In this document: positions 1 through 60,169 of the stretch, piece by piece
How positions within the stretch are numbered: position 1 is the first letter of the stretch
Layout of the letters: each line of letters opens with the position of its first letter
Assembly: GCA_964405115.1 (NCBI GenBank)
Contig: CAYOMN010000001.1
Coordinates: forward strand, 5,755-65,923
Origin: an uncultured Candidatus Saccharibacteria bacterium
GTDB lineage: Bacteria > Patescibacteriota > Minisyncoccia > Phycocordibacterales > UBA1006
DNA: 60,169 nt
Reading direction: 5' to 3'
The notes under the pieces: generated by a model
Database searches by the model: none
What the model was told of the DNA's origin: nothing
What the model saw: only the letters and a program-made list of their open reading frames with translations
Program-made: the position numbers and the translations under genes

Positions 1-3000
1 GAACTATCTGTTACATCTGAACCTGAATCATTACTGTCTAAAGTGTCATCATTGTTTGTTACATTTCTCTGTTGTTGAGTACACCATGCATAAGTATTAT
101 CTTTATTACATAACTCTAATTTAAGAATATTATTTTCTTCTATTAAAATATTAATAGAGCTTCTATTTTCAATAACCCTCTTCCACAAATTAGACACATT
201 ATCAACAATCTCAATAACCTTATTAATAACTTCTTCTATTGTATTAATAATCCAATTATTATCTTTTGTCTCATCTTCTAAAGAAGTTTCTAATAGATTT
301 ATATTTATCTGATCTTGATCATCTATATCAGAAAGGTTTGATACACTTACTGATTTATTAAAAATATCCTCATTTCCTACGCCAGGGAACCATTGATTAT
401 CAACAAATACCATAACAGTTCCACTCTCTTGCTCTTCACTAAATCCTGTTAATGCAATACCTATAGTGTAACCTGCTTCTATAGCTTTCTTTCCTATACC
501 AGACTCATGTGAAATTGTTATTCTATCTCCTGAATGTATTTCTTCATTATTATCTAACATAACCTTAACTGGAACCCTACCTCTTAATGCAATAGGAATA
601 GGTCTCCCTCCTACCCAATCATCACCGGCACCAATGATCTTACCTGGATCAGTTGAAACCACACCAAATAATGTATCGCCGATACTTGCCTTTTTAACAC
701 CAGCACTTAAAGATGAATCTATTGTAACAAGATCACCAGCTTCTAATTCATTATCATTCGTATAATATACTTCAGAATAATCAGCTCCAGATTCAATAAA
801 TTTCTTTATCGTTATCGACGTTCCGTCTGCCATGGTTGTTGGGTTACTACCTCCACCAACTTTAAGTGCACGTAGTCTAATAGCATCACCATTCGATAGA
901 TTTAATATCAACGTTCTTGTACATGAATTACCTTCTGCTGTTGTATTTCTATGATAAGTACTACAAATAGATCCATCTTGAATTGTATTATTAACATCTA
1001 ATGACCATTGAACTTCAGTTCGTGTTGTACCACCACCGTCTGCTGAACCAGTATATGTTACTTCATATAAACCATCAGAATTAACAGTAACTAGATCAGT
1101 TGCCAACGAATAATTAATATTTGATTTTCGAACAGTATCTAAATTAACAGTTATCTCTGTGGTTGTTATTGTCTGTCCCCCTGTATTATCATAAACATCA
1201 TATGCACTTGATATACCTGCATCAGATGAACACTCCCACGCACCTGATGTTCCATTCCACTTAGCTATTTCTCCATCAGAACAAGAGAGACCTCCAAGTG
1301 TATCATTATCAATACTTAAAGAACCAAGACTAGCACTATCCGCTATTACCATAAAATGCCATATTTTATCACGTCTAATCCCAGCTGTCGTACCATTATC
1401 TTGCTCTGTTATATCAACATCAAAAGCTGCGGTTGTTTGATTATCTATTGAAATCTCCAAGTCATCCAAAGTAGAAGCTTGCTCATCAACTGTTAATTGT
1501 ACTGTATAATTATCTGTACTTAATGGCGTATCTAATGTAACAGTATAATCACCAACATTATTTCTTGTAACATTCGCTCCATTTACATCAAGTTCTATTC
1601 CATTAGCAGCAATCTTACCATATGCAACGATTTCACTTTGCTGAACAACTGTACATTCCCAAACAGAGGTTGTAGAATTCCATGATAAATACTCGCCATC
1701 AGCACATCCTCCAATAAGACGAAGTCCACTCGCAGTTGTTTCAAGTCCAGAATTAGAATTCGTAGTTAAGGTAGTTCCTACAGTAGTAGTATCGATCGTA
1801 ACATCATTCGCATTCACAATAATTCCATTTCCAGCGCCAATATCAAGAGCACTTCCACCACCACCAAATAAACCATCACCTGCAATAGATGTATTAAGTA
1901 AAGTTTCTGTTATTCCCCCATTGGGAACTGCAAAAACATCTCCTGTTAAACTAAGCCCTGTTCCAGCAGTATACGTTGTGTCATCGTCTCCATCATCTAA
2001 TCCTGATGGTCTATTTTGTATATTTGCCCAATCAGGTTGAATACTTGCAAGAGAAATCGTTTGATTGGTACCATTTTCAATCCCAATAGAAAGATTATTT
2101 GCTAAAAAAGATGATCCTTGAATATTTTGATTGTCAGTATTATCGAGATATCCTGATAGGTTAATGTTCGTTGTCGTTCCGTTTTCATCAAAATAATTAA
2201 GAGAATTTACGTTTAATGAAAGACTAGTAACACTTTCGTTAATATCCTGAGTAACACCATTTTCATTAGAGTAATCAGCAATCTTATGTCCAGAAATAGA
2301 ATTAGCAATATTCGTTATTGTTTCTAGCGTACTTACTGTGATTGGAACCCAATTAATTCCATTCCAACTCAATACTTGTCCATTTGTTGGAGTTATAGTT
2401 GTTGTGTCAACATCGAAATGGTTATTAATAGAACCAAGTAAAAGAGTATCTAAACTCACCCAATCTGTTCCTGTAACAGTACTACTTAAAATTTGTCCAG
2501 CAATACCAATTTCATTACTAGAGTCATAATACCCACCAGTTACACGAATATTTCCAGATACTTGAAGTTCTTGAGTAGGGGAAATTGTTCCTATTCCAAG
2601 TCTCTTATTTATATCATCCCAAAAGAAATTAATATTATCTTGACTAATTTGATTATTTGAATCTGCAAACAAAACAGAACCATTAACAAAACTACTTGAC
2701 TGTGTAGAAAAGATTCCAGAAATATCAGGAATTATTAATATATTATCAGATGTAGGGTCATTAACAGATATAGAAGTTTCAAAGGTGTTATTTGTCAATC
2801 CTTCAAAAATGAAAGGAACTGAACCTTGGACAATACCTGTAAATGTTATTTTATCAGTAATATCATCTCCAAATGACACATCGGCATTTGATAAAATATT
2901 CCCAGCAACGGTTAATCCACTAGACATGGAAACATTATCTAGAAAAAGAAATCCCTGATTTATTCCAAAAGTATTAAAAGTTGTATATCCATCAAGGGCA

Positions 3001-5798
3001 ACTGAAGTATCAAAGTAATTTGCTGTATCATATCCTACTTGCATTTGAGGTGTCACAGATGAATTATTTACAACTAATCCTGACATTGTAATGTTATTTA
3101 CATTATAAATCGAATTATTTCCTAGATCTAAATCACCAGTTAAAGTTCTTCCACCATTTGTTAATAAATATTGAGGATGATCATCATCTAACAATCCAGA
3201 TAAATTTCCATGATCAGCAACAGAACCGGTAGTACCAGAAGTCCCAAATCCAAAAACCCTATCAAGATTAGGACGTACATCATAAATATCATTAACTATA
3301 GAAGTTGCTCCTTGCTGAGAAACAATTGTCGCTAAAAACACAGCACCTGCCTTTTGAATACTCACTGGAATATCTGGAAAAGCTCCATCTTTTGCTTCTG
3401 TTTCTGTTGCATACTCAGCTTGCCCATAAATATAATTAACACTACCATCCAAAGTTCTTAATACTAAATCTTTTTTCCAATAACCATTTGTTAAGTTAAC
3501 AAGAGCGTTTATTTTTGGTCGTGTAATATCATTGTATTGTGTAGTAGAAACAAGATTTAAATTACTAAAATCTTGTACCCACCCATTATCAGATGTTTTA
3601 TTCCATTTAGTAAAAGCTATTGTGTCATTTACTACATATTCAGAGAGATTAGAAAATAGAATTCCTGAAGTTATTAATAAACTTAAATTTGTACTTCCCT
3701 CTGAAACAATATTCCCTGACTCAACAATTGTTCCTATAACATTATTTAAAAAATCATTATTTTTAGCTGTATAATTTCCAGCAAAAAATGGATTCGAAGA
3801 TAAAAGTCCAATATCCGAATTACTATTAAATGTATACACATATCCTAGATAGATATACTCATGTGTATTTGACCGAATATTAGTTATCCTAACAGCACCA
3901 GTTGAATCTATATAAACAAAATTATCTCCATTATAGAGAAGTGAAATATTATTTAGTCCTGTCCATGTTACTTCTAAAAGCTTATTAGAAATATTATTAA
4001 CAAAACCACTTCCGTCTGCAATATTTATAGTATTACCCCCATTATCACTAAGTTCTCCACCATCAACTAAACCAGTAGACCATCTCTTATTTGCATTTAA
4101 ACCAAGATGCTGCAAAACATCTTCTATATTATTCTGAGTATAATAATTACCACCATCAGCAACTGGAATATCCAAAGCAGATACTTGATCAACATTAGTT
4201 CCCCAATTTATCTTTGAATCATTAATAGCATCGTCAATTACCTTATTTGTACTTACACTACTATCAGATAATTTTATTTCTGTAACTGAATTACTTGCTA
4301 ATTGATTTACACCAATACCATCATTTGGTACATATAGCTGATTAGACGTGTTTATTCCAACGGTAACATTATCAACACCTAGAGATAAAACTCTATTTGA
4401 CAAACTTAAGGCATTGTTAAGCGCCACAGAATAAAGATTAGAAAGATCAACAGTTTGTGTAGCTACAGCATCGTCTTCCAATGATAAATTTAATACACCA
4501 TCCACAAGAGAAAAAACATCAACTACCTGGTCATCAGTATTTACTGTCATATTTGTAGGTTCCCAATTAGCTCCACTCCAACTCAATACTTGTCCATTTG
4601 TTGGAGTTATGGTTGTTGTATCAACATCGAGAAGACTGTTAATATCAGAGTTAAGGCTGAACACAGTTCCTAATAATTGTAATCCTACTCCAGCTGTATA
4701 AAGTGTATCTATATCGATAGAACACACAAAGGCTGTTCCATTCCATTGTAATTTATTTGTACCAGAACAAGTTGGTGTATTCACAGAAAAAGCAGTTCCT
4801 GTTAGAATAACTCCATTTCCAGCAGTATACGTTGTGTCATCGTCTCCATCATCTAATCCTGATGGTCTATTTTGTATATTTGCCCAATCAGGTTGAATAC
4901 TTGCAAGAGAAATCGTTTGATTGGTACCATTTTCAATCCCAATAGAAAGATTATTTGCTAAAAAAGATGATCCTTGAATATTTTGATTGTCAGTATTATC
5001 GAGATATCCTGATAGGTTAACAGTTGTAACATCATTAGTTAAGCTAAGTATATCACTAGAAAGTGAAAGATCTTGATTATCGGTATTGTCTAAGTAAGAA
5101 GATAAACTAACAGTATAATCACCGACCGAATCGTTCTCTAAAGATAAATGTAATGTATTAGCTAAAATATTAAAAGTATCCACAATTTGATCATCAGTAT
5201 TAACTGTAGAAGCAATACATACCCAATAACCATTGCTATTATCCCACTGAAGAACATGTCCATCTGTAACACATTCAATACGGTCCTCACTATTATATAT
5301 AGCTGTAATACCATCAACAACCAAAGCATCAGATCCTGTCGCATCTCTACCAGCTGAACCCATACCACCACGCCCTCTAGGTCCAATATCTCCTTTTTCA
5401 CCATTCTCGCCCTTAGGACCTTGATATCCTCTAGGTCCAATATCTCCTTTTTCACCATTCTCGCCCTTAGGACCTTGATATCCTCTAGGTCCAATATCTC
5501 CTTTTTCACCAGAAATAGCCTCTATAAATTTATCTTTTTTTCCTGTTAAATTATTACAATCAGAAAAAGCACAAAATGTTTTAAGAGACACCCTTTCGGC
5601 AATCGATAAATTAGTCTTTTCTTCTGGGGTAATATCTTTTTCACAATATGAAAAAGTACAAAATACTTTTAGCGATAATTCTTCTAATAAATTTATATCA
5701 TTGTCCTCGGCATATACTTTTATAAAAAATGAACTACTCAAAAATAATACAAATAAAATTATCAATAGTTTATTAACTTTTTTTTTATTTAATATCAT
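1..5798 (-). CDS. giant secreted surface protein, first 1932 codons (3'-partial, runs off the left edge): signal peptide, collagen-like Gly-X-Y stretch, phage-tail-fibre-like beta-rich modules
   Basis: Absent from the supplied ORF track because it has no in-window stop. ATG at 5798 lies 5 nt after the stop of 5804..6010. I translated the reverse complement line by line down to nt 3 and met no stop. N-terminus MILNKKKVNKLLIILFVLFLSSSFFIKVYA/EDND resembles a Sec signal peptide. It has 17 Gly-X-Y triplets and the motifs TYTAGxG, TPTNGQVLSW(S/N)GxNW, DHGNLSGLLDDDHPQYLL and FFWDDINKRLGIGT. Confidence 0.85.
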   Translation of the reverse strand, partial: MILNKKKVNKLLIILFVLFLSSSFFIKVYAEDNDINLLEELSLKVFCTFSYCEKDITPEEKTNLSIAERVSLKTFCAFSDCNNLTGKKDKFIEAISGEKGDIGPRGYQGPKGENGEKGDIGPRGYQGPKGENGEKGDIGPRGRGGMGSAGRDATGSDALVVDGITAIYNSEDRIECVTDGHVLQWDNSNGYWVCIASTVNTDDQIVDTFNILANTLHLSLENDSVGDYTVSLSSYLDNTDNQDLSLSSDILSLTNDVTTVNLSGYLDNTDNQNIQGSSFLANNLSIGIENGTNQTISLASIQPDWANIQNRPSGLDDGDDDTTYTAGNGVILTGTAFSVNTPTCSGTNKLQWNGTAFVCSIDIDTLYTAGVGLQLLGTVFSLNSDINSLLDVDTTTITPTNGQVLSWSGANWEPTNMTVNTDDQVVDVFSLVDGVLNLSLEDDAVATQTVDLSNLYSVALNNALSLSNRVLSLGVDNVTVGINTSNQLYVPNDGIGVNQLASNSVTEIKLSDSSVSTNKVIDDAINDSKINWGTNVDQVSALDIPVADGGNYYTQNNIEDVLQHLGLNANKRWSTGLVDGGELSDNGGNTINIADGSGFVNNISNKLLEVTWTGLNNISLLYNGDNFVYIDSTGAVRITNIRSNTHEYIYLGYVYTFNSNSDIGLLSSNPFFAGNYTAKNNDFLNNVIGTIVESGNIVSEGSTNLSLLITSGILFSNLSEYVVNDTIAFTKWNKTSDNGWVQDFSNLNLVSTTQYNDITRPKINALVNLTNGYWKKDLVLRTLDGSVNYIYGQAEYATETEAKDGAFPDIPVSIQKAGAVFLATIVSQQGATSIVNDIYDVRPNLDRVFGFGTSGTTGSVADHGNLSGLLDDDHPQYLLTNGGRTLTGDLDLGNNSIYNVNNITMSGLVVNNSSVTPQMQVGYDTANYFDTSVALDGYTTFNTFGINQGFLFLDNVSMSSGLTVAGNILSNADVSFGDDITDKITFTGIVQGSVPFIFEGLTNNTFETSISVNDPTSDNILIIPDISGIFSTQSSSFVNGSVLFADSNNQISQDNINFFWDDINKRLGIGTISPTQELQVSGNIRVTGGYYDSSNEIGIAGQILSSTVTGTDWVSLDTLLLGSINNHFDVDTTTITPTNGQVLSWNGINWVPITVSTLETITNIANSISGHKIADYSNENGVTQDINESVTSLSLNVNSLNYFDENGTTTNINLSGYLDNTDNQNIQGSSFLANNLSIGIENGTNQTISLASIQPDWANIQNRPSGLDDGDDDTTYTAGTGLSLTGDVFAVPNGGITETLLNTSIAGDGLFGGGGSALDIGAGNGIIVNANDVTIDTTTVGTTLTTNSNSGLETTASGLRLIGGCADGEYLSWNSTTSVWECTVVQQSEIVAYGKIAANGIELDVNGANVTRNNVGDYTVTLDTPLSTDNYTVQLTVDEQASTLDDLEISIDNQTTAAFDVDITEQDNGTTAGIRRDKIWHFMVIADSASLGSLSIDNDTLGGLSCSDGEIAKWNGTSGAWECSSDAGISSAYDVYDNTGGQTITTTEITVNLDTVRKSNINYSLATDLVTVNSDGLYEVTYTGSADGGGTTRTEVQWSLDVNNTIQDGSICSTYHRNTTAEGNSCTRTLILNLSNGDAIRLRALKVGGGSNPTTMADGTSITIKKFIESGADYSEVYYTNDNELEAGDLVTIDSSLSAGVKKASIGDTLFGVVSTDPGKIIGAGDDWVGGRPIPIALRGRVPVKVMLDNNEEIHSGDRITISHESGIGKKAIEAGYTIGIALTGFSEEQESGTVMVFVDNQWFPGVGNEDIFNKSVSVSNLSDIDDQDQININLLETSLEDETKDNNWIINTIEEVINKVIEIVDNVSNLWKRVIENRSSINILIEENNILKLELCNKDNTYAWCTQQQRNVTNNDDTLDSNDSGSDVTDS
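1961..2164 (-). repeat. 204-bp exact direct repeat, copy 1 (inside the giant CDS)
   Basis: Base-for-base identical to 4817..5020 on manual comparison. The offset is 2856 bp (952 codons), so the copies are in frame. Confidence 0.9.
4817..5020 (-). repeat. 204-bp exact direct repeat, copy 2 (inside the giant CDS)
   Basis: Identical to 1961..2164. Both encode NLSGYLDNTDNQNIQGSSFLANNLSIGIENGTNQTISLASIQPDWANIQNRPSGLDDGDDDTTYTAG. Confidence 0.9.
5377..5510 (-). repeat. 54-bp tandem repeat, about 2.5 copies, encoding (GEKGDIGPRGYQGPKGEN)n collagen-like triplets
   Basis: The unit ctaggtccaatatctcctttttcaccattctcgcccttaggaccttgatatcct starts at 5377, 5431 and 5485 (the last copy is partial). The period is a multiple of 3 and is in frame with the giant CDS. 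Confidence 0.9.
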
Positions 5799-5803
5799 TA
5801 AAA

Positions 5804-6010
5804 TTATTTATCTACATTTTCTAAATCTGAAATATTTTTACTAAAAGTTCTTTGAGAATAATCAGTATCATTCGTATAAAAAACATAAGCACCAAAAAAA
5901 AATATTAAAAGAAACAATCCTAATATGATAGTAAAAGTTCTCCAAATTATTTTATGTGATTTTTTTTTAATTATGATTCTTCTCATAAAAAATGAAATTA
6001 TTATACTCAA
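5804..6010 (-). CDS. small single-pass membrane protein immediately upstream of the giant gene
   Basis: ORF track entry with one hydrophobic span (IILGLFLLIFFFGAYVFY). The start is TTG at 6010, or more likely ATG at 5986, which is preceded by TATAAT. Its stop is 5 nt before the giant-gene ATG. Confidence 0.4.
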   Translation of the reverse strand: MSIIISFFMRRIIIKKKSHKIIWRTFTIILGLFLLIFFFGAYVFYTNDTDYSQRTFSKNISDLENVDK

Positions 6011-6076
6011 AAAATAAAAATGTATAATACATATATTTTAGTATATATTAATATAATATTTGACACAATAGACACC

Positions 6077-7633
6077 CTAAAAGATTGATTCTTCATAAAT
6101 ATTACGTTCTCTTATGTTAAGAATCTTTAAAACAGTAGATAATATATTTTTTAACCCACAATTATCTTTCAAAACAATTTTTTCATATACTAAATCATTA
6201 GAGATAATTGTAAATGGTACCTTATTGTTTGTATGACTTGTTAAATATTTACCATGTTTATACTCTGCATTTCCATGATCGGCAGTAACCATAACTACAT
6301 AATTATTTTCCAAAGCAACAGGGATTATGGCTTCTAAAGATCTATCTACAGCATAAATTGCTTCTTTAATAGCCTCATATTTTCCAGTATGACCAACCAT
6401 ATCGGCATTTGGAAAATTACAAAGTATAAAATCTTGTGCGTTATTTTCAATTTCATTTATTAGTGTTTTAGTAATTTCTACTGAAGCCATTTCAGGCTTT
6501 AAATCAAAGGTATTTACTTTCGGAGACGAAATTATTATTTTTTTTTCTCCATTAAAATCATAATCTTCTCCTCCATCGAAGAAAAATGTAACGTGTGCAT
6601 ATTTTTCTGTCTCTGATATACGTAACTGTGTTCTATTATAATCTTCTAAAATCTGACCAAGAATATATTTTACTTTTATGTCTGGAAAAGCAACATTCAA
6701 AACCTGTTTATAATAATTTGTCATAGAAACAAAATAAATATTTTTATGACATGTATCAAATTTAGAAAAATGTTTATCATTAAAAATATGTGCTATCTGT
6801 CGCTCTCTATCCTTTCTAAAATTAAAATCAATAATAGAATCATGCTCTTGTAATCCATCATATTTTTTATAAGAGATAGGCTCCAAAAACTCATCAGAAA
6901 ATTCTGAATCATTATATTTTTCTTTTAATAAGTCTTGTGGTTCAATAAATGTTCGTCTTAATATACGATTAGATCCCGAATCCATTTTATTAGAATTACA
7001 AATGACATCGTAATATTTTTTTATTCTATCCCAATTATTATCTCTATCCATTGCAAAATATCTTCCAGCAAGAGTAACAATCTTTCCAATACCAATTCTA
7101 GTCATTTCTTTTTCTAAATCTAAAACATAATTAATAGCATTTTGTTCTCCTGCATCACGACCGTCTGTAATTACGTGTATATAAACATCATCTTTTTTTA
7201 ATCCTTGTTGTTTAGATAATTCTAATAATGCAATCAAATGATTAAAATGTGAGTGAACCCCCTCTTTTTGAAGTAATCCAATTAAATGTAGTTTTGAATT
7301 ATATTTTTTTACTAAACAAATAGCGTTTATGAATTCTTTATTTTTGAAAAAACTACCATCTTCAATAGAGTTATTTATTCTAAGAAGAGATTGCTCTAAA
7401 ATTCTTCCAGCACCAATTGTCATATGTCCAACCTCTGAATTTCCAAAGTAACCGTCTGGCAAACCAACTTCTTCCCCACATGTATTTAATAGCGTTGTGG
7501 GGTAGTTTTTTTCTAAATAATCTGTGTATTGAGTATTTGCCTGTGCAATCATATTATATTTTGTCTCTGATGAATAACCCCAACCATCACGAATAATCAA
7601 CAACACCTTACTATCTTTCTTAATGTTCTTCAT
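6077..7633 (-). CDS. gpmI: 2,3-bisphosphoglycerate-independent phosphoglycerate mutase
   Basis: Motifs IRDGWG, NSEVGHMTIGAGR and TADHGNAE. I prefer the ATG at 7633 (MKNIKKDS...) because a TGCTATAAT box lies 7 nt upstream. The ORF itself extends to 7663. Confidence 0.9.
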   Translation of the reverse strand: MKNIKKDSKVLLIIRDGWGYSSETKYNMIAQANTQYTDYLEKNYPTTLLNTCGEEVGLPDGYFGNSEVGHMTIGAGRILEQSLLRINNSIEDGSFFKNKEFINAICLVKKYNSKLHLIGLLQKEGVHSHFNHLIALLELSKQQGLKKDDVYIHVITDGRDAGEQNAINYVLDLEKEMTRIGIGKIVTLAGRYFAMDRDNNWDRIKKYYDVICNSNKMDSGSNRILRRTFIEPQDLLKEKYNDSEFSDEFLEPISYKKYDGLQEHDSIIDFNFRKDRERQIAHIFNDKHFSKFDTCHKNIYFVSMTNYYKQVLNVAFPDIKVKYILGQILEDYNRTQLRISETEKYAHVTFFFDGGEDYDFNGEKKIIISSPKVNTFDLKPEMASVEITKTLINEIENNAQDFILCNFPNADMVGHTGKYEAIKEAIYAVDRSLEAIIPVALENNYVVMVTADHGNAEYKHGKYLTSHTNNKVPFTIISNDLVYEKIVLKDNCGLKNILSTVLKILNIRERNIYEESIF

Positions 7634-7640
7634 AAAATGA

Positions 7641-7649
7641 ATTATAGCA
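7641..7649 (-). promoter_or_regulatory. extended -10 box (TGCTATAAT) 7 nt upstream of the gpmI ATG
   Basis: The reverse complement of attatagca reads TGCTATAAT. There is no SD-like purine run in the 7-nt gap. Confidence 0.45.
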
Positions 7650-7694
7650 CACAAATACTTCACTTTTGTATAACAATAAGTATAATAAAATTGT

Positions 7695-8018
7695 GTTTGT
7701 ATTGGATGATTGCGCTACGGTGTGGAAAGTCCGGACATTCCCAAATTATATGGAGTATGGTAGCAGGTAACGCCTGTCTGCAGTAATGCACGAGGTGCGA
7801 GCAGTGACGCCAAAACCGAGAGGAGATGGCATCTCTTTGAGATGAATTTTATGGCAACATGAAAAGTGAAACGGCTAAATCCTTACCAGAATGCAAGGTC
7901 GTACTCTTCTTGCTTGCAAGAAGTTGAGTACCGCAAAGAATATTATGGTGACATAATATCAAGATAAATAATCATCACTCATTTTTATGAGTACAGAATC
8001 CGGCTTATAGATACAAAC
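7695..8018 (+). ncRNA. rnpB: RNase P RNA (bacterial type A-like)
   Basis: Conserved P4 strands GGAAAGUCCGGAC (5') and ACAGAAUCCGGCUUAU (3'). The terminal P1 pairing is GUUUGUAU...AUACAAAC. Length is about 324 nt and it lies in an ORF-free gap. Confidence 0.85.
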
Positions 8019-8023
8019 ATACT

Positions 8024-8055
8024 AAAAAAACACAAATAATTATTTGTGTTTTTTT
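8024..8055. terminator. bidirectional intrinsic terminator (32-bp perfect palindrome)
   Basis: aaaaaaacacaaataa/ttatttgtgttttttt has A and T runs on both sides. It lies between rnpB (+) and the stop of the DUF192 gene (-). Confidence 0.7.
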
Positions 8056-8536
8056 AGTATTTTAAATCCAACTTATCTCCAACAAAAAGATGATTATCAT
8101 CAGTAAAACCATTCTTAAATTCTAAAACATATAGTGACTTAATATTTGGTCCATAGGAACTAGGGTAATCTTTTGGTCTAGCATTCTTCTTTATATATAT
8201 AATTCTTTTTTCTTTATCAAGCCATACAATATCAATTGGAAATTTCATATCCTTCATCCAAAAATTATAATACCCACTTTTATCAAAAAGAAATAGCATA
8301 GCTTCATTATCACCGATATGATCTAAAATAGATAACCCCTTTTCACGATTTAATTTATCATCTGCTATATAAGTAGAAATTGATTTTCCGTTTATAGTAA
8401 ATATAACCATGTCTAATCTATTTTTTTTATAATCCATATTACTAAAACTAAATATAAACAAACCAACAACAAATAAAATTGTAATTATATAAAAAATATG
8501 CTTTTTTAAAAAAAATCTTTGTATGAAAATCTTCAT
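8054..8536 (-). CDS. DUF192 domain protein
   Basis: N-terminal TM segment. The stretch EAMLFLFD...FWMKDMKFPIDIVWLD fits the DUF192 pattern. Confidence 0.6.
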   Translation of the reverse strand: MKIFIQRFFLKKHIFYIITILFVVGLFIFSFSNMDYKKNRLDMVIFTINGKSISTYIADDKLNREKGLSILDHIGDNEAMLFLFDKSGYYNFWMKDMKFPIDIVWLDKEKRIIYIKKNARPKDYPSSYGPNIKSLYVLEFKNGFTDDNHLFVGDKLDLKY

Positions 8537-9143
8537 GTGCTATTATTGTATCATGTTTAAAAAGAAAGAATTAAAAGAAAAGAAAACATTACTACAAGAT
8601 TTTCTAGAATTACTACGTTTCACAGTATTAGTACTTATAATTGTAATACCACTAAGAATTTTTATAGCTCAACCATTTATAGTAAATGGACAATCTATGA
8701 TGCCAACATTTAAGAACGGAGATTACTTAATTGTTGACGAACTAACATTCAAATATTCAGAACCAAAAAGAGGAGAAGTTATCGTATTTAGACTACCATC
8801 TAATCATAAAAGATTTTTAATAAAACGTGTTGTTGGTCTTCCAGGAGAAACCGTTGTTATAAGCGGAAATAATATAACAATTACAAAAGAAAACGGTGAT
8901 GTAATTAAACTTGATGAAAATTATTTAAATGGATATTTTTCAAGCTACGGAACATGGAAATTAAAAAATAATGAATATTTTGTAATGGGAGACAATAGAA
9001 ATAATAGTTCTGACTCAAGATCTTGGGGTGTTCTAGATAAAGATCTAATTATTGGAAAAACATTCTTACGTTTATTCCCTTTTACAACAATAGGTTTTAA
9101 TCCAGGGCAAGTAGAACCAGGGCAAGTAGAAGTTGCACTATAA
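8523..9143 (+). CDS. lepB: signal peptidase I
   Basis: Motifs GQSMMPTFKNGDYLIVD, IKRVVGLPGE and GDNRNNSSDSRSWG. An alternative start is the ATG at 8553. Confidence 0.9.
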   Translation: MKIFMCYYCIMFKKKELKEKKTLLQDFLELLRFTVLVLIIVIPLRIFIAQPFIVNGQSMMPTFKNGDYLIVDELTFKYSEPKRGEVIVFRLPSNHKRFLIKRVVGLPGETVVISGNNITITKENGDVIKLDENYLNGYFSSYGTWKLKNNEYFVMGDNRNNSSDSRSWGVLDKDLIIGKTFLRLFPFTTIGFNPGQVEPGQVEVAL

Positions 9144-43715: not shown

Positions 43716-45638
43716 TTAATTAACAACCCTACTATCTCCAGCAACAGCTGATGAATCTGACAATCTAGTCGTGAGAGGTGTCTTTTTATAGCTAAGATCT
43801 ACATCAGTAAATGTATCCCTACCAGATAAAATTATATTTCTAGTAATATCTGGATTTGTATCAACATGCGATAACGATGGTAATAACTCTACCTGAAATG
43901 AAACTTGTCTTGGCCTAACTTCACCAATACCAACACCAGCTTGTAAGTCACCAATATCCCATTTAACTTCCCTTGTAGTTTTGTTAAAATCAATTTTACT
44001 CCTTTCAACTGATGGTGATATATTTCCTGTCCAAGTAACATAAGAAGGAAGTGTTGTTATAACTTTAGTATCTTTTATATCATTTGATGAATTTAATATC
44101 TGTAATGTAACTGTATATTTTGTCTTTTCTCCTACTCGTGGTGGAATAGGCCCACTATTTTTAAATGGGCCGTCACTATATGATGTTTTTGCTATCAAAC
44201 TTAGATCTGAATTAGCTAATACATCTACTCTAGAAATAGAAGATGCCTCACGAATATTTCCATTATCTTCAATACCAGAAACGTTAATTGTTACTGTAAA
44301 ATTAGGGTTTTCAATAAAACCTAAACTACTAACTAAGTCTTTTGTATCTAAATTAAAGTTCAAAGTACCTGATTCACCCGGGTTAAGAGACTCCAATTCA
44401 GCTACATTATTCTTATCCCAAATAATATTCTTACTATTAGAATTATAATCACCATTTAACGAAAGAACCTTACTTGGAATATATAAATCACCATTTAAAT
44501 TTGCTGTTACTTGTACGTCATTAAGTACTTTATCAAGATTATTTTTATATTCTATTTCAATATTAACATTATCACCACCACGGATCGGAACCTTACTTTC
44601 ATTTTTATTGTTTGCACTAATATCTGCTGTAATAAAAGACTCTTTTATATCAACAGTGTGAGTAACCTCATCAAACGTTGTTTCTATTGAATCTTTCTGC
44701 AACTGATTTTGCTTCCCAACTTTTGCTTGAAAAGACTGCCCTTGTCCTGGTAAAGCATCTAAACGACCAGATATTTTGATAACCTCTTCATCAGATGTTA
44801 TCTTTGGAAAATACCATATATTAGATCCAAATTTTGGTTTAATATTTGATGAAATAAACTCAAATCCTAACGGATAATTAACACTAAGCAAAATATCATT
44901 TATTTGTTCATTTGTATTAGATGAAACACTTATATTTAATTGAATCTCTTGATTCTGAACTATTTCCTTCGGAGCATCAATTGATAATTTTGTCGGGGTT
45001 GATCGTATAACAAGTTCATGATTTATTTTTTTAACAAATATAGAACTAGATCCTTCAATACGGTATTCCAACGTAGCATGTATATTTCTTACATCACCCT
45101 CCTTTCCGTACAATAATAAGTTAAATTCCTCATTTATACGTTTTCCACTCTCAATATCAGAAAGAGACCGACGTAAAAAAACTTCATCGTCTTTGCTTGA
45201 AGAATCTTTAGGATAAGACAAAATAAGATCTGGTAGAATCAATTTCTGTTTATTAAAATTTTGAATACGTACATGTAATTCAAGATTCTCTCCTCCATCA
45301 ATAAAAGGTTGCCCTAAGATCTCCATTGAAATTAAATCGTCAGAAACCTTTTCTTTTTTATCATATAAAGAAATTACAGCAATGACAGCTGTTATAATAA
45401 AAAAGAATAGTACACCAAGAAATATCTTTCGAAAGATAGATGTTGGTAATTTTCTTTTTCTATTTTTAGTTAAAAGTTTGTCAAGATCTTCCTCTTTAAA
45501 ACTATGTTTCAATTCAATATTACGACCATGGATCTTACGCCTTTTACGTTGTAAAAATTCTTTATTCTTAAAATAAAGTTCATCATTTAATATATCAATT
45601 TTTTGTTTCTTTTGTTTCGGAGTTATATCATCTCTCAT
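43716..45638 (-). CDS. single-pass membrane protein with a large beta-rich (Ig-like repeat) ectodomain
   Basis: Basic N-terminus, a TM segment (IFLGVLFFFIITAVIAVISLY), then about 540 aa rich in N/S/T/V and looking like beta sandwiches. Confidence 0.55.
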   Translation of the reverse strand: MRDDITPKQKKQKIDILNDELYFKNKEFLQRKRRKIHGRNIELKHSFKEEDLDKLLTKNRKRKLPTSIFRKIFLGVLFFFIITAVIAVISLYDKKEKVSDDLISMEILGQPFIDGGENLELHVRIQNFNKQKLILPDLILSYPKDSSSKDDEVFLRRSLSDIESGKRINEEFNLLLYGKEGDVRNIHATLEYRIEGSSSIFVKKINHELVIRSTPTKLSIDAPKEIVQNQEIQLNISVSSNTNEQINDILLSVNYPLGFEFISSNIKPKFGSNIWYFPKITSDEEVIKISGRLDALPGQGQSFQAKVGKQNQLQKDSIETTFDEVTHTVDIKESFITADISANNKNESKVPIRGGDNVNIEIEYKNNLDKVLNDVQVTANLNGDLYIPSKVLSLNGDYNSNSKNIIWDKNNVAELESLNPGESGTLNFNLDTKDLVSSLGFIENPNFTVTINVSGIEDNGNIREASSISRVDVLANSDLSLIAKTSYSDGPFKNSGPIPPRVGEKTKYTVTLQILNSSNDIKDTKVITTLPSYVTWTGNISPSVERSKIDFNKTTREVKWDIGDLQAGVGIGEVRPRQVSFQVELLPSLSHVDTNPDITRNIILSGRDTFTDVDLSYKKTPLTTRLSDSSAVAGDSRVVN

Positions 45639-46841: not shown

Positions 46842-49800
46842 TTAACTAATTTTACAAATAAAAGTTAATTTCCCTGCTTTTATTTCTGTTCCACTATTTT
46901 CTGTAAACTTAATCTCTGTAATACCAGCAGATAATTTAAACTTACTTTTTCCTTTCTCAATTTTTTCAACAAACTCTCTACCATTATCATCAGTCCATAT
47001 TTCTAGAATTATTTTATTATGAGCATCTAATCCTGCATTTTTACGCATCTTTTGAATTCCACGTAACAATTCACGAATATTTCCCTCTTCTATCAAAGCA
47101 GAAGTTAAATTAGTATTCAAGGATAACTCACCATCAATTAACGTCTTTACATTCATCTCATCTAAAATTAACTTAATATATTCCTCTGGAAGATCCTTTA
47201 TTGGCACTGTAAATGATGAAAGTGGTTGTCTAACCTTTAATTTAGACTCAGCTCTCATCTGTAAACCGACACTTATTAAACCTCGAACTCGTATCATATT
47301 TTCAATAACATTATTGTCATCATAAATATTTCTATCTGACATTGAAGATATATTTATCTCACCTAATCCTTCTTTTTTCGAACAATAAAATAATGTTGGC
47401 CAGCCTTCAAGATGAACAGATTCTAAAAGAGATGAATCTAAAGCTCTTAAATCCTGCCATAATTCTTCTGCAACAAATGGTATAAATGGTGCTATTATCT
47501 TTGAGACTGTTTCCAAAACTTTCCTTGTTGTAGATAAAGCATTCTTTTTATCTAAAAGATTTTCCCCCTTAAACCTATCACGTGAACGACGAATATACCA
47601 AGTAGAAAAATCATCAACAAATTCAAATATAGGACGTGCAGCACGATCAAGCTCATAATTATCAAGACCTTCTGTTACAGAAGATAATAGTTCATACATT
47701 CTAGCAATAATCCACTTATCTAAAATATTATCTGAATTAAAAGAATCACTATGTTCTATATTACCAACATACATTTTATATAATGACATTATATTTCTTA
47801 ATCTGCCAATCACTTTTGATGCAACTTCACGAACCCCCTTTTCTGAAAAAGCAAACTCTTCTGCACGAACAACAGGAGAATTAATCATATACAACCTCAT
47901 CGCATCAGCTCCAGATGTATCAAAAATCAATTGTGGATCAGGATAATTTTTTAAAGATTTTGACATCTTTTTACCATCTTCTGCTAAAATTAACCCATTA
48001 ACAATAACATTTTCAAATGGAGTCTTATTAAAAAGAGCGTTACCAATAACTGTCATTACATAAAACCATCCACGTGTCTGATCAAGACCTTCTGCTATAA
48101 ATTGTGCTGGGAAAGCTTTTTCAAATAATTCCTCATTTTCAAACGGATAATGTTGTTGTGCATACGGCATTGATGAAGAATCAAACCAAACGTCAAATAC
48201 ATCGTTCACACGTTTCAATTCAACCCCATCTTGTTCAATAATAAAATTATCAATATAAGGCCTATGAATATCCAATATCATATCTTCATTGTGTGGGTAC
48301 GGAATAAAATCTAACTTCAAGATATTCGCATTTTCAATTTCAGGTTTTATATAATAAAAATCATAAAAATATCGTTTTAATCCATGCTTTTCAGTAGCAA
48401 ATTGTAAATTTTTTATTGTTTCTGCATGAGAAACAAATAATATATTTTTATTTTTATATTTTTCTTCAAGCTCGAATAGTAAATCTGTCGTTTCTTTATA
48501 TAAATTTCCTATGGATTCGGAATCATTCTCTAATTTTAGATCAAAAATATCTTTTCCTTTTTTCTTTGATTCTTTGTGAAAATCAATCCATTTTTTACCT
48601 TCCCATTTTTTACCAGTATTTCTCTCCCGAATTCTTTTATCAAAAATAATTTGTCCTTTATCTAAACTAAGTTGTTCTCTAATTATTTCTGCAGTCTCTT
48701 TTGTACGCATTAATGGTGATGTAATTATTAAATCAATATCTTTATTTAACAATCCTTTTACACTATCTTGTACTTGTTTACGACCTAAGTCAGTTAAACT
48801 ATTTTCTGTTTTAATCTTCGCATTTATGGCCCCTGTTAAATTTGATTCTGATTCTCCATGTCTTATTACATAATAATTATTCCCTGATCTTTTCGCATAA
48901 GAAAATAATTCATCATAGGAACTAATTACCACATTCTTTTCTGTCTTTGAATTAAACCAAATCGGCAACGGCGTTCCCCAAAAACGTGAACGTGAAATTG
49001 CCCAGTCACGAACTCCTTCAAGCCACTTCCCAAATCTCCCAGATCCAACATGTTCAGGAATCCAATTTACTTTTTTATTTGATTCTATTAATTTATCTTT
49101 AATTTTAGGAACATCAATATACCAAGAAGTTGTTGCATAATTAAGAAGTGGAGTATCACATCGCCAACAATGAGGATAAGAATGAACTAACTTTTTCTTT
49201 GAAAAAAGTTTTCCATCATGAGCAAGTCGCTTAATAATTTCAATATCAGCAGACATTAAATCATCTTTCTTTTTAACTAACATATCAACAAAAGAATCAC
49301 CATCAACTGTATCTGCAAATATATGTTTGAATGCTCCTGATTTTGAAACATGTTGAACAAAAGGCAAATCATTTTCTTCTCCCAACTGTAAATCATCTGA
49401 ACCAAAAGCAGGCGCAATATGAACTACCCCAGTTCCTTCTTCCGTTGTAACAAAATCAGCTCCATACACTTTCCATCCATTTCCATGATTTTCTGTCTCC
49501 GGATCATTTTGATAATAATCAAAAGGAGCAAGATATTCTATCCCTATAAGCTCAGAACCTTTCATTTCTAAAATAATTTCATAAATCTTACCTTCAAAGA
49601 AATATCTTTTACTTCTATCATTATTAGGAACCAATTTTTGGTCTTCTTTTGCAAAAATACTTTTTGCAAGAATATATTTATCAGTAGAAATATTTTTAGT
49701 ATCTCCATAATTTTCAGGAGAATTAATCTGTGCTGATGAGACTTCTTTAATTTTTACATAATCAATGTTTTCGCCAACCGCCAGAGCAACGTTTCCTGGA

Positions 49801-50501
49801 AGCGTCCACGGTGTTGTAGTCCATGCAAGTAAAAATGTCCCTGGTTCGTCTTTTAATTCAAACTTAGCAGTAAGAGAAATATCTGTAACATCTTTATACC
49901 CTTGATTTACTTCAAAATTTGATAATGTCGTCTCACATCGTGGACAAAGATGCATTGCCTTAAATCCTTCTTTAGTAAGTCCTTTCTTATGGAGCTCTCC
50001 AAAAACCCACCAAATAGATTCCATATATTCTGGATCCATTGCCATATAAGCATCTTCCATATCAACGAAACGTCCGGAACGAGGAACAGATTTTTTCCAC
50101 TCGGATTCATAACGCAGAACAGAGTCTCGTGCAGATTTATTAAATTTATCTATTCCATAATCCTCAATATCTTTTTTTGTTGCAAGTCCTAATTCTTTTT
50201 CAATAAGATTTTCAATGGGAAGCCCATGACAATCCCAGCCCCACTTTCGTGGAACATGATAACCTTGCATTGTCTTATAGCGTGGGATGATATCTTTTAT
50301 AGTTCCAGCAAGAAGATGCCCATAATGAGGTAACCCTGTCGCAAAAGGAGGTCCATCATAAAATACAAAATCTCCCTTTGGGGATTCTTTTTCCAGACTT
50401 TTCCTGAAAATATCATTTTTTTGCCAAAAGGAAAGAATTTTTTCTTCCATTTTTGCTATTTCTGATTTTTCCGTTTTTTGACTTTCTCGTTCTTTATTCA
50501 T
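46842..50501 (-). CDS. ileS: isoleucine--tRNA ligase (type 2) with an inserted histidine-phosphatase-superfamily domain
   Basis: PHYGHLL (HIGH), the editing-domain WTTTPWTLPGN and KMSKS. Residues about 541-735 (nt 48297..48881) carry RHGESESN, SPLMRTKETA, RERNTG and VSHAETI. Confidence 0.92.
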   Translation of the reverse strand: MNKERESQKTEKSEIAKMEEKILSFWQKNDIFRKSLEKESPKGDFVFYDGPPFATGLPHYGHLLAGTIKDIIPRYKTMQGYHVPRKWGWDCHGLPIENLIEKELGLATKKDIEDYGIDKFNKSARDSVLRYESEWKKSVPRSGRFVDMEDAYMAMDPEYMESIWWVFGELHKKGLTKEGFKAMHLCPRCETTLSNFEVNQGYKDVTDISLTAKFELKDEPGTFLLAWTTTPWTLPGNVALAVGENIDYVKIKEVSSAQINSPENYGDTKNISTDKYILAKSIFAKEDQKLVPNNDRSKRYFFEGKIYEIILEMKGSELIGIEYLAPFDYYQNDPETENHGNGWKVYGADFVTTEEGTGVVHIAPAFGSDDLQLGEENDLPFVQHVSKSGAFKHIFADTVDGDSFVDMLVKKKDDLMSADIEIIKRLAHDGKLFSKKKLVHSYPHCWRCDTPLLNYATTSWYIDVPKIKDKLIESNKKVNWIPEHVGSGRFGKWLEGVRDWAISRSRFWGTPLPIWFNSKTEKNVVISSYDELFSYAKRSGNNYYVIRHGESESNLTGAINAKIKTENSLTDLGRKQVQDSVKGLLNKDIDLIITSPLMRTKETAEIIREQLSLDKGQIIFDKRIRERNTGKKWEGKKWIDFHKESKKKGKDIFDLKLENDSESIGNLYKETTDLLFELEEKYKNKNILFVSHAETIKNLQFATEKHGLKRYFYDFYYIKPEIENANILKLDFIPYPHNEDMILDIHRPYIDNFIIEQDGVELKRVNDVFDVWFDSSSMPYAQQHYPFENEELFEKAFPAQFIAEGLDQTRGWFYVMTVIGNALFNKTPFENVIVNGLILAEDGKKMSKSLKNYPDPQLIFDTSGADAMRLYMINSPVVRAEEFAFSEKGVREVASKVIGRLRNIMSLYKMYVGNIEHSDSFNSDNILDKWIIARMYELLSSVTEGLDNYELDRAARPIFEFVDDFSTWYIRRSRDRFKGENLLDKKNALSTTRKVLETVSKIIAPFIPFVAEELWQDLRALDSSLLESVHLEGWPTLFYCSKKEGLGEINISSMSDRNIYDDNNVIENMIRVRGLISVGLQMRAESKLKVRQPLSSFTVPIKDLPEEYIKLILDEMNVKTLIDGELSLNTNLTSALIEEGNIRELLRGIQKMRKNAGLDAHNKIILEIWTDDNGREFVEKIEKGKSKFKLSAGITEIKFTENSGTEIKAGKLTFICKIS

Positions 50502-59722: not shown

Positions 59723-59830
59723 AACTGGCGACTACCTACTTTCCCCACTAAGGAGTATCATCGGTTCTAGCGGACTTTACTTCTCTGTTCGGAATGGGAA
59801 GAGGTGTTTCCCCGCCGACAAGTCACCAGA
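59723..59830 (-). rRNA. rrf: 5S ribosomal RNA
   Basis: The reverse complement reads UCUGGUGACUUGUCGGCGGGGAAACACCUCUUCCCAUUCCGAACAGAGAAGUAAAGUCCGCUAGAACCGAUGAUACUCCUUAGUGGGGAAAGUAGGUAGUCGCCAGUU. Helix I pairing and the loop A/C consensus (CCGAAC, GAUGGUA-like) are present. Confidence 0.9.
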
Positions 59831-60019
59831 TTTAAATATTGAATTTTATGTACATTAACAAATGAAGACTCAAGAACAAACATTAAAATGTTCTACACTT
59901 TTAAAACCTAGATTCCAGTTTTCACTGGAATGACAAATTTTTAAAAAAAATATTGTCATCTTAATTATGCGATTAGTAATCTGAAAAAGATAATAAATTA
60001 TCAGTCTCTTATTCAGATT

Positions 60020-60169
60020 TCCTAATAGGGATGGGCAATTAGTATTTCTCAGCTCAATGCATTACTGCACTTCCACTTAAAACCTATCAACCTAGTCATC
60101 TCCTAGGGCCCTACGATTCCTCATCTCGAAGTTGGCTTCGTTCTTAGATGCTTTCAGAACTTATCCATT
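60020..60169 (-). rRNA. rrl: 23S ribosomal RNA, 3'-terminal fragment (continues beyond the right edge)
   Basis: The reverse complement contains GAUAAGUUCUGAAAGCAUCUAAG and GGUUGAUAGG...UUGAGCUGAGAAAUACUAAU, which match the conserved 3' domain VI. The 3' end is approximate. Confidence 0.85.

Follow-up and report, generated by a model that had tools for sequence, protein, structure and literature searches.

Few enzymes are as strongly conserved as the aminoacyl-tRNA synthetases, and to our knowledge new catalytic domains inside synthetase cores are rare, the editing domain of connective peptide 1 (CP1) being the classic case. The solved type-2 isoleucyl-tRNA synthetases (IleRS) compared here, from S. 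cerevisiae (7D5C, 8WND), P. megaterium (PmIleRS2, 8C8U) and T. thermophilus (1ILE), have a common domain order, in which a Rossmann domain, the CP core and the CP1 editing domain are followed by CP2, CP3, an anticodon-binding domain and C-terminal domains; in no case does CP3 house a further catalytic domain. The Rossmann catalytic domain of yeast IleRS comprises residues 8-169 and 527-643, with CP2 at 420-458 and CP3 at 459-526 (PMC7955072), and the Rossmann/HUP core of PmIleRS2 comprises residues 40-168 and 513-632 (PMC10485003). The DNA analysed in this work (the window) is a stretch of 60,169 nucleotides from an uncultured Candidatus Saccharibacteria bacterium (assembly GCA_964405115.1, contig CAYOMN010000001.1), and it encodes an IleRS with the same domain order and the same HIGH, KMSKS and editing motifs as these enzymes (target-normalised template modeling (TM) scores of 0.76-0.86 in Foldseek), within which a branch-1 domain of the histidine phosphatase superfamily is lodged. 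We consider it at the very least highly likely that this architecture is real and that the phosphatase domain is catalytically competent; a housekeeping type-2 IleRS would then have been made bifunctional by a phosphatase nested in a surface loop of CP3.

Boundaries, active site and fold of the insert

The ileS gene is a complete open reading frame (ORF) at 46842-50501 on the reverse strand, encoding 1219 amino acids and a stop codon, and a single uninterrupted frame runs through both junctions of the insert. Pfam divides tRNA-synt_1 into two stretches around His_Phos_1, the first covering residues 22-534. In the alignment to PmIleRS2, window residue 536 corresponds to 478 and window residue 737 to 480, the insert standing for a single PmIleRS2 residue; in that to yeast IleRS, window residues 305-532 align to 272-488 and 742-1111 to 497-864, which leaves about 8 yeast residues at the site; and in that to T. 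thermophilus IleRS, window residue 536 corresponds to 480 and 743 to 488. Because all three alignments break cleanly there, the insert is taken to be residues 537-736, a length of 200 residues that compares with 193-216 among 119 orthologues and with the 1-8 residues present at this site in canonical type-2 enzymes. A preliminary description of this DNA, made by a model from its letters, had credited the canonical enzymes with just such a short connecting peptide, and the reference structures agree; it had placed the domain at 48297-48881 (residues 541-735), which is right as to location and slightly short as to extent, the insert reaching 3 nucleotides further at the low end and 12 further at the high end.

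The distance between the equivalents of W515 and D744 was compared among 72 IleRS from GTDB genomes. Most type-2 enzymes have 25-31 residues there and a few have 35-42; the distance is 51-53 in a large group dominated by metagenome-assembled genomes (MAGs) labelled Bacteroidota, and 199-240 in insert-bearing members of the Candidate Phyla Radiation (CPR), and from this spread it follows that the CP3 loop tolerates length variation. A normal connective peptide is ruled out as an account of the window segment, given the 1-8 residues at the site itself and the 25-53 between the W515 and D744 equivalents in canonical enzymes, as opposed to 199-240 here; alignment to reference enzymes, the check proposed beforehand, has thus delimited a true insert. 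Among the enzymes without one, 53 residues separate WGTPLPIW from DLH(R/K)P, as against 25-26 in most type-2 sequences, at loci L037, L039-L040, L042, L045, L049-L052, L055-L056, L058-L059, L063-L064, L066, L068 and L075-L079, which are mostly Bacteroidota-labelled MAGs (L058 is labelled Erysipelotrichaceae); this group marks the CP3 loop as a recurrent site of length expansion. The preliminary description had put the domain inside the catalytic core, which holds for the linear sequence, where the Pfam catalytic domain is split, and fails structurally: since the yeast equivalent of the site, 488-497, falls within CP3 (459-526), the insert lies in the middle of CP3 and outside the Rossmann/HUP core. 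Structurally, the phosphatase is best described as an insertion nested within an insertion.

Residues 544-700 match Pfam His_Phos_1 (PF00300) with E=4e-26 and 92.3 bits, where the gathering threshold is 21.7, a match far beyond chance, and all elements of the catalytic core of that family are present (the histidine of the RHG motif, two arginines, a second histidine and a Glu/Asp donor). Conservation was counted over 344 domain copies from 325 proteins, with scorable copies as denominators. R547 and H548 are each found in 341 of 341, the third position of the motif is G in 318 and A in 20, R599 is found in 336 of 336 (and in 184 of 184 in an earlier set of sequences), S595 in 337 of 338, N554 in 320 of 341 and H692 in 323 of 324, while position 626 holds E in 326 and D in 7 of 335. 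Across 119 orthologues the only invariant columns of the insert are R547, H548, N554, G573, R599, E626, E662 and H692. That the catalytic residues are essentially invariant while the domain averages 33% pairwise identity argues for retained catalysis; purifying selection on the full catalytic set is strict across hundreds of lineages of the CPR, those with 2 to 4 or more tandem copies included, and the phosphatase domain is almost certainly active. An alternative is that the insert is a catalytically dead structural module, serving as a dimerisation or tRNA-binding scaffold. Many histidine phosphatases are dimeric, and the tandem copies described below could mimic a dimer, yet the essential invariance of the nucleophile, the phosphate-binding residues and the acid/base residue in so divergent a domain makes a dead scaffold extremely unlikely, and a pseudoenzyme is ruled out on the same grounds.

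The insert region taken alone (residues 516-743) is modeled by AlphaFold2 with a predicted local distance difference test score (pLDDT) of 95.5 and a predicted TM-score (pTM) of 0.91, and in the model of the whole protein (residues 1-1195; pLDDT 90.6, pTM 0.84) the insert and both junction blocks reach a pLDDT of about 94-98. The junction residues N541, Y543, P736 and H737 are nearly invariant among the 119 orthologues. Because the junctions are both ordered in the model and conserved, a fixed docking on IleRS is favored over a floppy tether, which suggests a phosphatase domain held rigidly on the synthetase. A Foldseek search with the insert recovers the alpha/beta fold of the family with probability 1.00, the best matches being 6s2q, PhoE (1h2e) and PspA (4ij5); the nearest structures (6S2Q, PhoE, PspA, GpgP, the riboflavin-pathway HFP 9MMH, TIGAR and CobC) are phosphomonoesterases of about 200 residues, with TM scores of 0.70-0.78 and 20-27% identity, and the root-mean-square deviation is 2.5-3.5 A for the first five. 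The central claim of the preliminary description, that a complete and probably active histidine phosphatase has been grafted into a loop of an intact 1219-residue IleRS, is therefore upheld by the Pfam match, the alignments, the conservation and the predicted structure alike, and every motif that it quoted, of synthetase and phosphatase alike, was found at its residues. The features of the gene are collected in Table 1.

Table 1. Features of the window ileS gene and of the phosphatase domain within it (window coordinates; aa, amino acids)
Feature	Nucleotides	Residues (aa)	Strand	Remark
N-terminal IleRS part	48894-50501	1-536	-	Rossmann first half with HIGH, CP core, CP1 editing, CP2, CP3 first half
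HIGH region, PHYGHLL	50310-50330	58-64	-	HYGH inside; motif search
Editing motif, WTTTPWTLPGN	49791-49823	227-237	-	WTTTPWT at 227-233; motif search
CP2-CP3 linker, VRDWAISRSRFWG	48975-49013	497-509	-	Homologous to yeast 453-ARDWNVSRNRYWG-465 by alignment
RFWGTPLPIW		506-515	-	Motif flanking the insert region
Insert, histidine phosphatase superfamily branch 1 domain	48294-48893	537-736	-	200 aa; alignment to PmIleRS2
Phosphatase motif, NNYYVIRHGESESN		541-554	-	Motif search
RHG motif	48855-48863	R547-H548-G549	-	H548 is the predicted phospho-accepting nucleophile
Phosphatase motif, ITSPLMRTKETA		593-604	-	Motif search
Second phosphate-binding Arg	48705-48707	R599	-	SPxxRTxET motif
Phosphatase motif, IRERNTGKKWEG		624-635	-	Motif search
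Predicted general acid/base	48624-48626	E626	-
Phosphatase motif, LFVSHAETIKNL		688-699	-	Motif search
Second catalytic His	48426-48428	H692	-	SH[G/A/E] motif
C-terminal IleRS part	46842-48293	737-1219	-	CP3 second half (HNEDMILDIHRPYID), Rossmann second half with KMSKS, anticodon-binding domain, C-terminal domain
DIHRPYID		744-751	-	Motif flanking the insert region
KMSKS	47955-47969	845-849	-	Motif search
Anticodon-binding domain		928-1094	-	Pfam Anticodon_1
C-terminal domain		1126-1192	-	Pfam DUF5915

Distribution, inheritance and copy number

With residues 490-770 as the query, metagenomic IleRS fragments carrying PF00133 together with PF00300 were recovered at 35-42% identity across both junctions. 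A scan of one genome per GTDB species gave 34 loci that match over the whole query and span both junctions, with labels that include Paceibacteria, Minisyncoccia, Yanofskybacteria, Spechtbacterales, Peregrinibacteria/Peribacteria and 'Patescibacteria group', and an exhaustive HMMER search of 1.84 billion representatives at 50% identity gave 98 proteins with E<=1e-30, most of them 1130-1200 residues long, with positions 1-281 of the query matched in one stretch at approximately residues 440-740. When the full-length protein served as the query, PF00300 was present in all 120 best matches (48-71% identity, plus the protein itself), the source names of which include 'class I tRNA ligase family protein' and 'isoleucine--tRNA ligase' and refer to Pacebacteria, Nomurabacteria, Wolfebacteria and Paceibacterota. 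The survey of related genomes that the preliminary description had called for thus finds the same insert to be widespread, with the RHG motif and the R, E and H residues kept essentially without exception, and the fusion is a widespread CPR trait rather than a peculiarity of one genome.

The possibility that both junctions are products of a chimeric assembly or of faulty annotation is effectively refuted already and retains next to no probability: the frame is single through the junctions, over 300 independent sequences, the work of many projects and assemblers, show the same architecture, which rules out an assembly chimera, and the identities of insert and body correlate. Nothing speaks for such an artefact. 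A few fragments on short contigs that join other domains to the same IleRS motif do look chimeric, such as P0068 (431 residues on a 1.9-kb contig), in which 'WGAPLPVW...' is succeeded by the C-terminal half of a radical-SAM domain, and P0091 (217 residues), in which a piece of PPDK_N precedes the IleRS. These two were also considered as other cargo at the CP3 site and were set aside as short-contig fragments with partial domains that are probably chimeric. At a further locus, L034 (Yanofskybacteria RIFOXYD1_FULL_42_10), the insert-bearing ileS lies in two overlapping ORFs (4693-6240, 516 residues; 6212-8170, 653 residues), which is a frameshift or an assembly error within the gene.

Mean pairwise identity is 33% for the insert and 49% for the IleRS body, and the two are correlated (Pearson r=0.61), a pattern that fits vertical co-inheritance of insert and body with the insert under looser constraint. 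Some CPR IleRS lack the insert (L038, L072 and L073). At L038 (ileS at 4672-7527) 35 residues lie between the flanking motifs, with ...LEKYLKPGSSMPRNKKGEI running directly into DLHKPYID. Both L038 and L072 group with insert-bearing enzymes in a neighbor-joining tree of IleRS bodies, and because L038 is nested among them, it looks like a clean secondary loss; the tree is crude, with long branches and heavy sampling of Bacteroidota, and as such leaves unsettled whether there was one gain followed by losses or several gains. A 'split' version of the system, with a free-standing phosphatase beside ileS in relatives without the insert, was sought in 80 loci, and no His_Phos domain was found outside ileS in any of them.

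More than one tandem His_Phos domain occupies the same CP3 site in 15 of the 325 proteins, the synthetase then being 1380-1490 residues long; examples are P0125, P0133, P0224, P0237, P0207, P0169, P0153, P0180, P0208 and P0150. Two copies are present in all five GTDB loci labelled Peregrinibacteria/Peribacteria (L019, L023, L027, L029 and L031; ileS at about 4500-8970). P0224, which is truncated, has two complete copies and breaks off within the beginning of a third, and P0125, which is truncated by the end of its contig, has at least 4. The R, H, R, E and H catalytic residues are kept in every complete tandem copy. One further CPR IleRS, P0331 (MFC1801975.1, 1325 residues), carries the His_Phos insert at residues 664-827 together with a GNAT domain at residues 285-415, in the CP1/editing region; NCBI names this protein only 'GNAT family N-acetyltransferase'.

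Candidate substrates and coupling to aminoacylation

No curated model of a phosphatase or mutase subfamily accepts the insert. The dPGM models of NCBIfam (NF038349, NF010713, NF002339 and others) reach at best 75.7 bits, for archaeal dPGM, against a cut-off of 225, and the scores are similarly short for CobC (TIGR03162, 64.1 against 162.9 bits), PspA (NF045917, 54.6 against 350), SixA (TIGR00249, 28.5 against 74.5) and GpmB (45.5 against 261). An arginine directly after the catalytic glutamate is specific to dPGM; at position 627 of the insert, only 20 of 184 sequences have R, and 119 have I, V or L. The domain, at about 195 residues, is also of phosphatase size. By these features the insert belongs with the phosphatase-type members of the superfamily, and a phosphoglycerate mutase is ruled out by the missed cut-offs, the size of the domain and the residue after E626.

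The closest free-standing relatives of the insert are 31-39% identical to it and stand in operon-like contact with genes of nucleotide or NAD metabolism. Five gene contexts are informative (two more contigs are too short to use): P0014 lies between a gene for an NT5C and nucleoside-hydrolase (IU_nuc_hydro) fusion and an HD-domain gene, P0089 directly follows a NUDIX gene on two contigs, P0052 directly follows a TLC nucleotide (ATP/ADP) translocase, P0026 is two genes downstream of a NUDIX gene, and P0011 precedes a HAD hydrolase and a SIR2 gene. Loci at which free-standing relatives were seen are L081/L082 (6001-6534), L084 (5001-5552), L086 (1845-2507), L088 and L089. These relatives may constitute an uncharacterised subfamily of nucleotide phosphatases, and the fact that all five contexts are nucleotide- or NAD-related points weakly to a nucleotide-type substrate. 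The mean net charge of the insert is approximately -4 (200 proteins), the same per residue as that of the IleRS body, which lends no support to a basic surface of the kind that binds RNA. Because the contexts of the relatives are nucleotide-related and the insert is not basic, we favor a small phosphomonoester of the nucleotide type as the substrate, to which we would give about an even chance, and our best guess at a candidate is AMP, which aminoacylation yields, or else a related phosphate of a nucleoside or of ribose. Hydrolysis would presumably proceed by the standard route of the family, in which the phosphate would be held by R547, R599, N554 and H692 and attacked by H548 to give a phospho-histidine intermediate, while E626 would protonate the leaving group and then activate a water molecule.

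Several considerations weigh against this preference. Since no cut-off of a curated phosphatase subfamily is reached, substrate specificity is not transferable by homology; the free-standing relatives are distant, and five contexts are a small sample. It also stays unexplained why IleRS alone among the synthetases would need a phosphatase for AMP or another nucleotide. Furthermore, an internal insertion that has been kept for long and is rigidly docked hints at a tighter coupling to the synthetase than a phosphatase acting freely on small molecules would need. Last, a copy number that ranges from 1 to 4 or more, together with the apparent loss at L038, fits a dispensable activity of the dosage type, a point that is neutral as to substrate.

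The same variation in copy number, and the absence of the insert from some nested lineages, would be expected if the domain were a hitch-hiker from central metabolism (for example a phosphoglycerate mutase/phosphatase or a phosphatase for phosphoserine or sugar phosphates) that has no part in translation and that, in a reduced genome, became joined to a protein which is essential and made constitutively. The best partial match in NCBIfam is to archaeal dPGM, with PspA, GpmB and PhoE matching as well, the structural neighbors include PspA, GpgP and TIGAR, the insert evolves faster than the IleRS body, and a search of the 60-kb window for a second His_Phos gene found none. We nevertheless judge such a hitch-hiker to be unlikely, in that every curated cut-off is missed by a wide margin, the residues specific to dPGM are absent, and the free-standing relatives keep nucleotide-related rather than glycolytic or serine-pathway company. 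Simple gene fusions are, moreover, normally terminal, and this domain instead sits within a loop, between junctions that are conserved and ordered.

The location of the insert raises the question of whether the phosphatase serves the synthetase itself. The yeast counterpart of the CP2-CP3 linker that precedes the insert (residues 497-509 here, 453-465 in yeast) forms part of the reveromycin A pocket, which is the site of the tRNA CCA end (PMC7955072), and toxSAS toxins put a pyrophosphate on tRNA at its 3'-CCA end and thereby block aminoacylation (PMC11559606). A built-in activity that heals tRNA ends, whether left by RNA cleavage or modified by CCA-phosphorylating toxins, has the appeal that CP3 is next to the CCA pocket and that such toxins exist; the ordered and conserved junctions of the insert, and the HD and NUDIX genes that adjoin its free-standing relatives, are in keeping with it. 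Arguing against tRNA-end healing, the nearest folds are those of small-molecule enzymes, the insert has a slightly acidic character and does not exceed the IleRS body in basicity, arrays in which 2 to 4 or more active domains stand in tandem misfit a single geometry at one CCA pocket, and the restriction to IleRS is again unexplained. We also know of no branch-1 histidine phosphatase that acts on RNA ends, and altogether we hold this role to be decidedly unlikely. In a broader form, a phosphatase coupled to IleRS would clear phosphate or pyrophosphate either from tRNA(Ile) at its 3' end or from a nucleotide in, or leaving, the aminoacylation pocket, and this too strikes us as decidedly unlikely. 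Were it true, IleRS would mend or unblock the tRNA or nucleotide it uses ahead of charging; a class Ia synthetase would thereby have a third catalytic activity, which might also counter toxins acting on the CCA ends of tRNA by phosphorylation.

Proximity to the pocket formed by HIGH, KMSKS and the CP2-3 linker would equally suit a phosphoprotein phosphatase with a regulatory role, like SixA, PGAM5 or Sts, which would strip inhibitory phosphates from IleRS itself (for example at the KMSKS loop) or would act on another translation factor. Branch-1 histidine phosphatases do include protein phosphatases, toxin kinases of the HipA/HipT type target the KMSKS loop in other class I synthetases, and the insert has a weak match to SixA (E=1e-6), limited to its N-terminal part. 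The SixA cut-off is missed by the margin given above, however, the full-length fold resembles small-molecule phosphatases, and no kinase partner is seen in the window or beside ileS at the 34 loci, which were inspected for His_Phos only; in addition, PADLOC matches the insert to 0 families. A phosphoprotein phosphatase is accordingly a very unlikely alternative to the nucleotide-type phosphatase that we favor. A link to defense or to phages was considered separately and is ruled out by the lack of any PADLOC match and by phage matches that are weak, generic and only 28-35% identical.

The host synthetase and its relation to described systems

The whole protein scores 830.2 bits against the ileS equivalog TIGR00392 (cut-off 621.4). 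Its best matches by phmmer among PDB sequences are yeast IleRS, P. megaterium IleRS2 and T. thermophilus IleRS (E of about 1e-191 to 1e-210), whereas the type-1 enzymes of S. aureus, P. megaterium (PmIleRS1) and H. pylori reach only about 1e-74 to 1e-86, and the best Foldseek matches of the whole-protein model are 7d5c, 8wnd and 8c8u. We therefore assign it to the type-2 (eukaryote/archaeal-like) IleRS, with DUF5915 at its C-terminus. The class I signature is complete: HIGH and KMSKS are accompanied by the editing motif of CP1 and by an anticodon-binding domain. No variation is seen in the HIGH, KMSKS and editing residues of the 119-orthologue alignment, and the aminoacylation site, the editing site and the anticodon-binding part are intact and conserved. 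The models for the mupirocin-resistance enzymes MupA and MupB (NF000257 and NF000258) give 687 and 665 bits against a cut-off of 1900.

Two other parts of the protein vary. Residues 254-304 (49590-49742, reverse strand) form a second, smaller lineage-variable segment within the editing domain, where the stretch 250-310 has 60 residues as compared with an orthologue median of 28 and the pLDDT falls to 55-76; the GNAT domain of P0331 occupies this same region. Residues 1039-1057 (47331-47387, reverse strand; CSKKEGLGEINISSMSDRNIY...), about 20 residues between the anticodon-binding and C-terminal domains, have a pLDDT below 50 and are probably a disordered, lineage-specific linker. The neighbors of ileS in the window are housekeeping genes (RecO, LemA, SecDF, FolD, FtsW/RodA and a class II synthetase). 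Two genes downstream, after RecO, is a 640-residue protein (43716-45638, reverse strand) with an N-terminal membrane segment and only a weak match to DUF11, which may be a surface protein of the CPR. With a GC content of about 29%, the window is AT-rich; it is bacterial and holds a bacterial RNase P class A RNA (7694-8023, forward strand), a 5S rRNA (59723-59830, reverse strand) and the 3' end of a 23S rRNA (60019-60169, reverse strand); ARAGORN finds no tRNA gene in the 60 kb, including beside the rRNA genes.

In a search of open-access papers and bioRxiv, neither an IleRS nor any other aminoacyl-tRNA synthetase was found described as bearing a histidine-phosphatase domain. The sequences themselves are already public, uncharacterised and with automatic Pfam labels, and what is new is the recognition of the fusion and of its extent: a second hydrolase, of unrelated fold, nested in CP3 of an essential IleRS across a large part of the CPR. 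If its activity is coupled to aminoacylation, it would bring to light a further level at which the quality of tRNA or nucleotides is controlled; if not, it would exemplify the packing of metabolic activities into essential proteins by ultra-reduced genomes. Because an enzyme hidden inside 'ileS' escapes annotation at the level of genes, the fusion is also relevant to metabolic reconstructions of the CPR. The insert is a directly testable enzyme and a clear lineage marker, and the capacity of the CP3 loop for large cargo is useful in synthetase engineering.

Among described proteins, the insert resembles small branch-1 phosphatases, namely PhoE of B. stearothermophilus (1H2E), the phosphoserine phosphatase PspA of H. 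thermophilus (4IJ5), mycobacterial GpgP (Rv2419c, 4PZ9), the mycobacterial hydrolase 6S2Q and the riboflavin-pathway HFP (9MMH), which have the same fold, size and RHG...R...E...H signature; those enzymes are free-standing, however, whereas the window domain is nested in another enzyme. A union of a nucleic-acid enzyme with a branch-1 phosphatase is known in the bifunctional RNase H/acid phosphatase (NF005567, PRK07238, of the Rv2228c type), the phosphatase part of which matches the insert with E=1e-17 and 64.6 bits, well below the model's cut-off of 326, but in that case the fusion is end to end and with a different partner. A precedent for an IleRS with an additional catalytic domain is provided by NF040702, 'isoleucine--tRNA ligase, N-acetyltransferase domain-containing', in which the added domain is a GNAT rather than a phosphatase, and which P0331 places in the CP1/editing region rather than in CP3; the window protein has no Pfam GNAT match and scores 331 bits against the cut-off of 1999 for that model. 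A parallel in architecture is the CP1 editing domain of class Ia synthetases, which is likewise a catalytic hydrolase housed in a connective peptide of the Rossmann fold and likewise gives one polypeptide two active sites. CP1, however, occurs in every IleRS, ValRS and LeuRS and acts on mischarged tRNA, which it hydrolyses, whereas the CP3 insert is restricted to this lineage and has an unrelated phosphatase fold.

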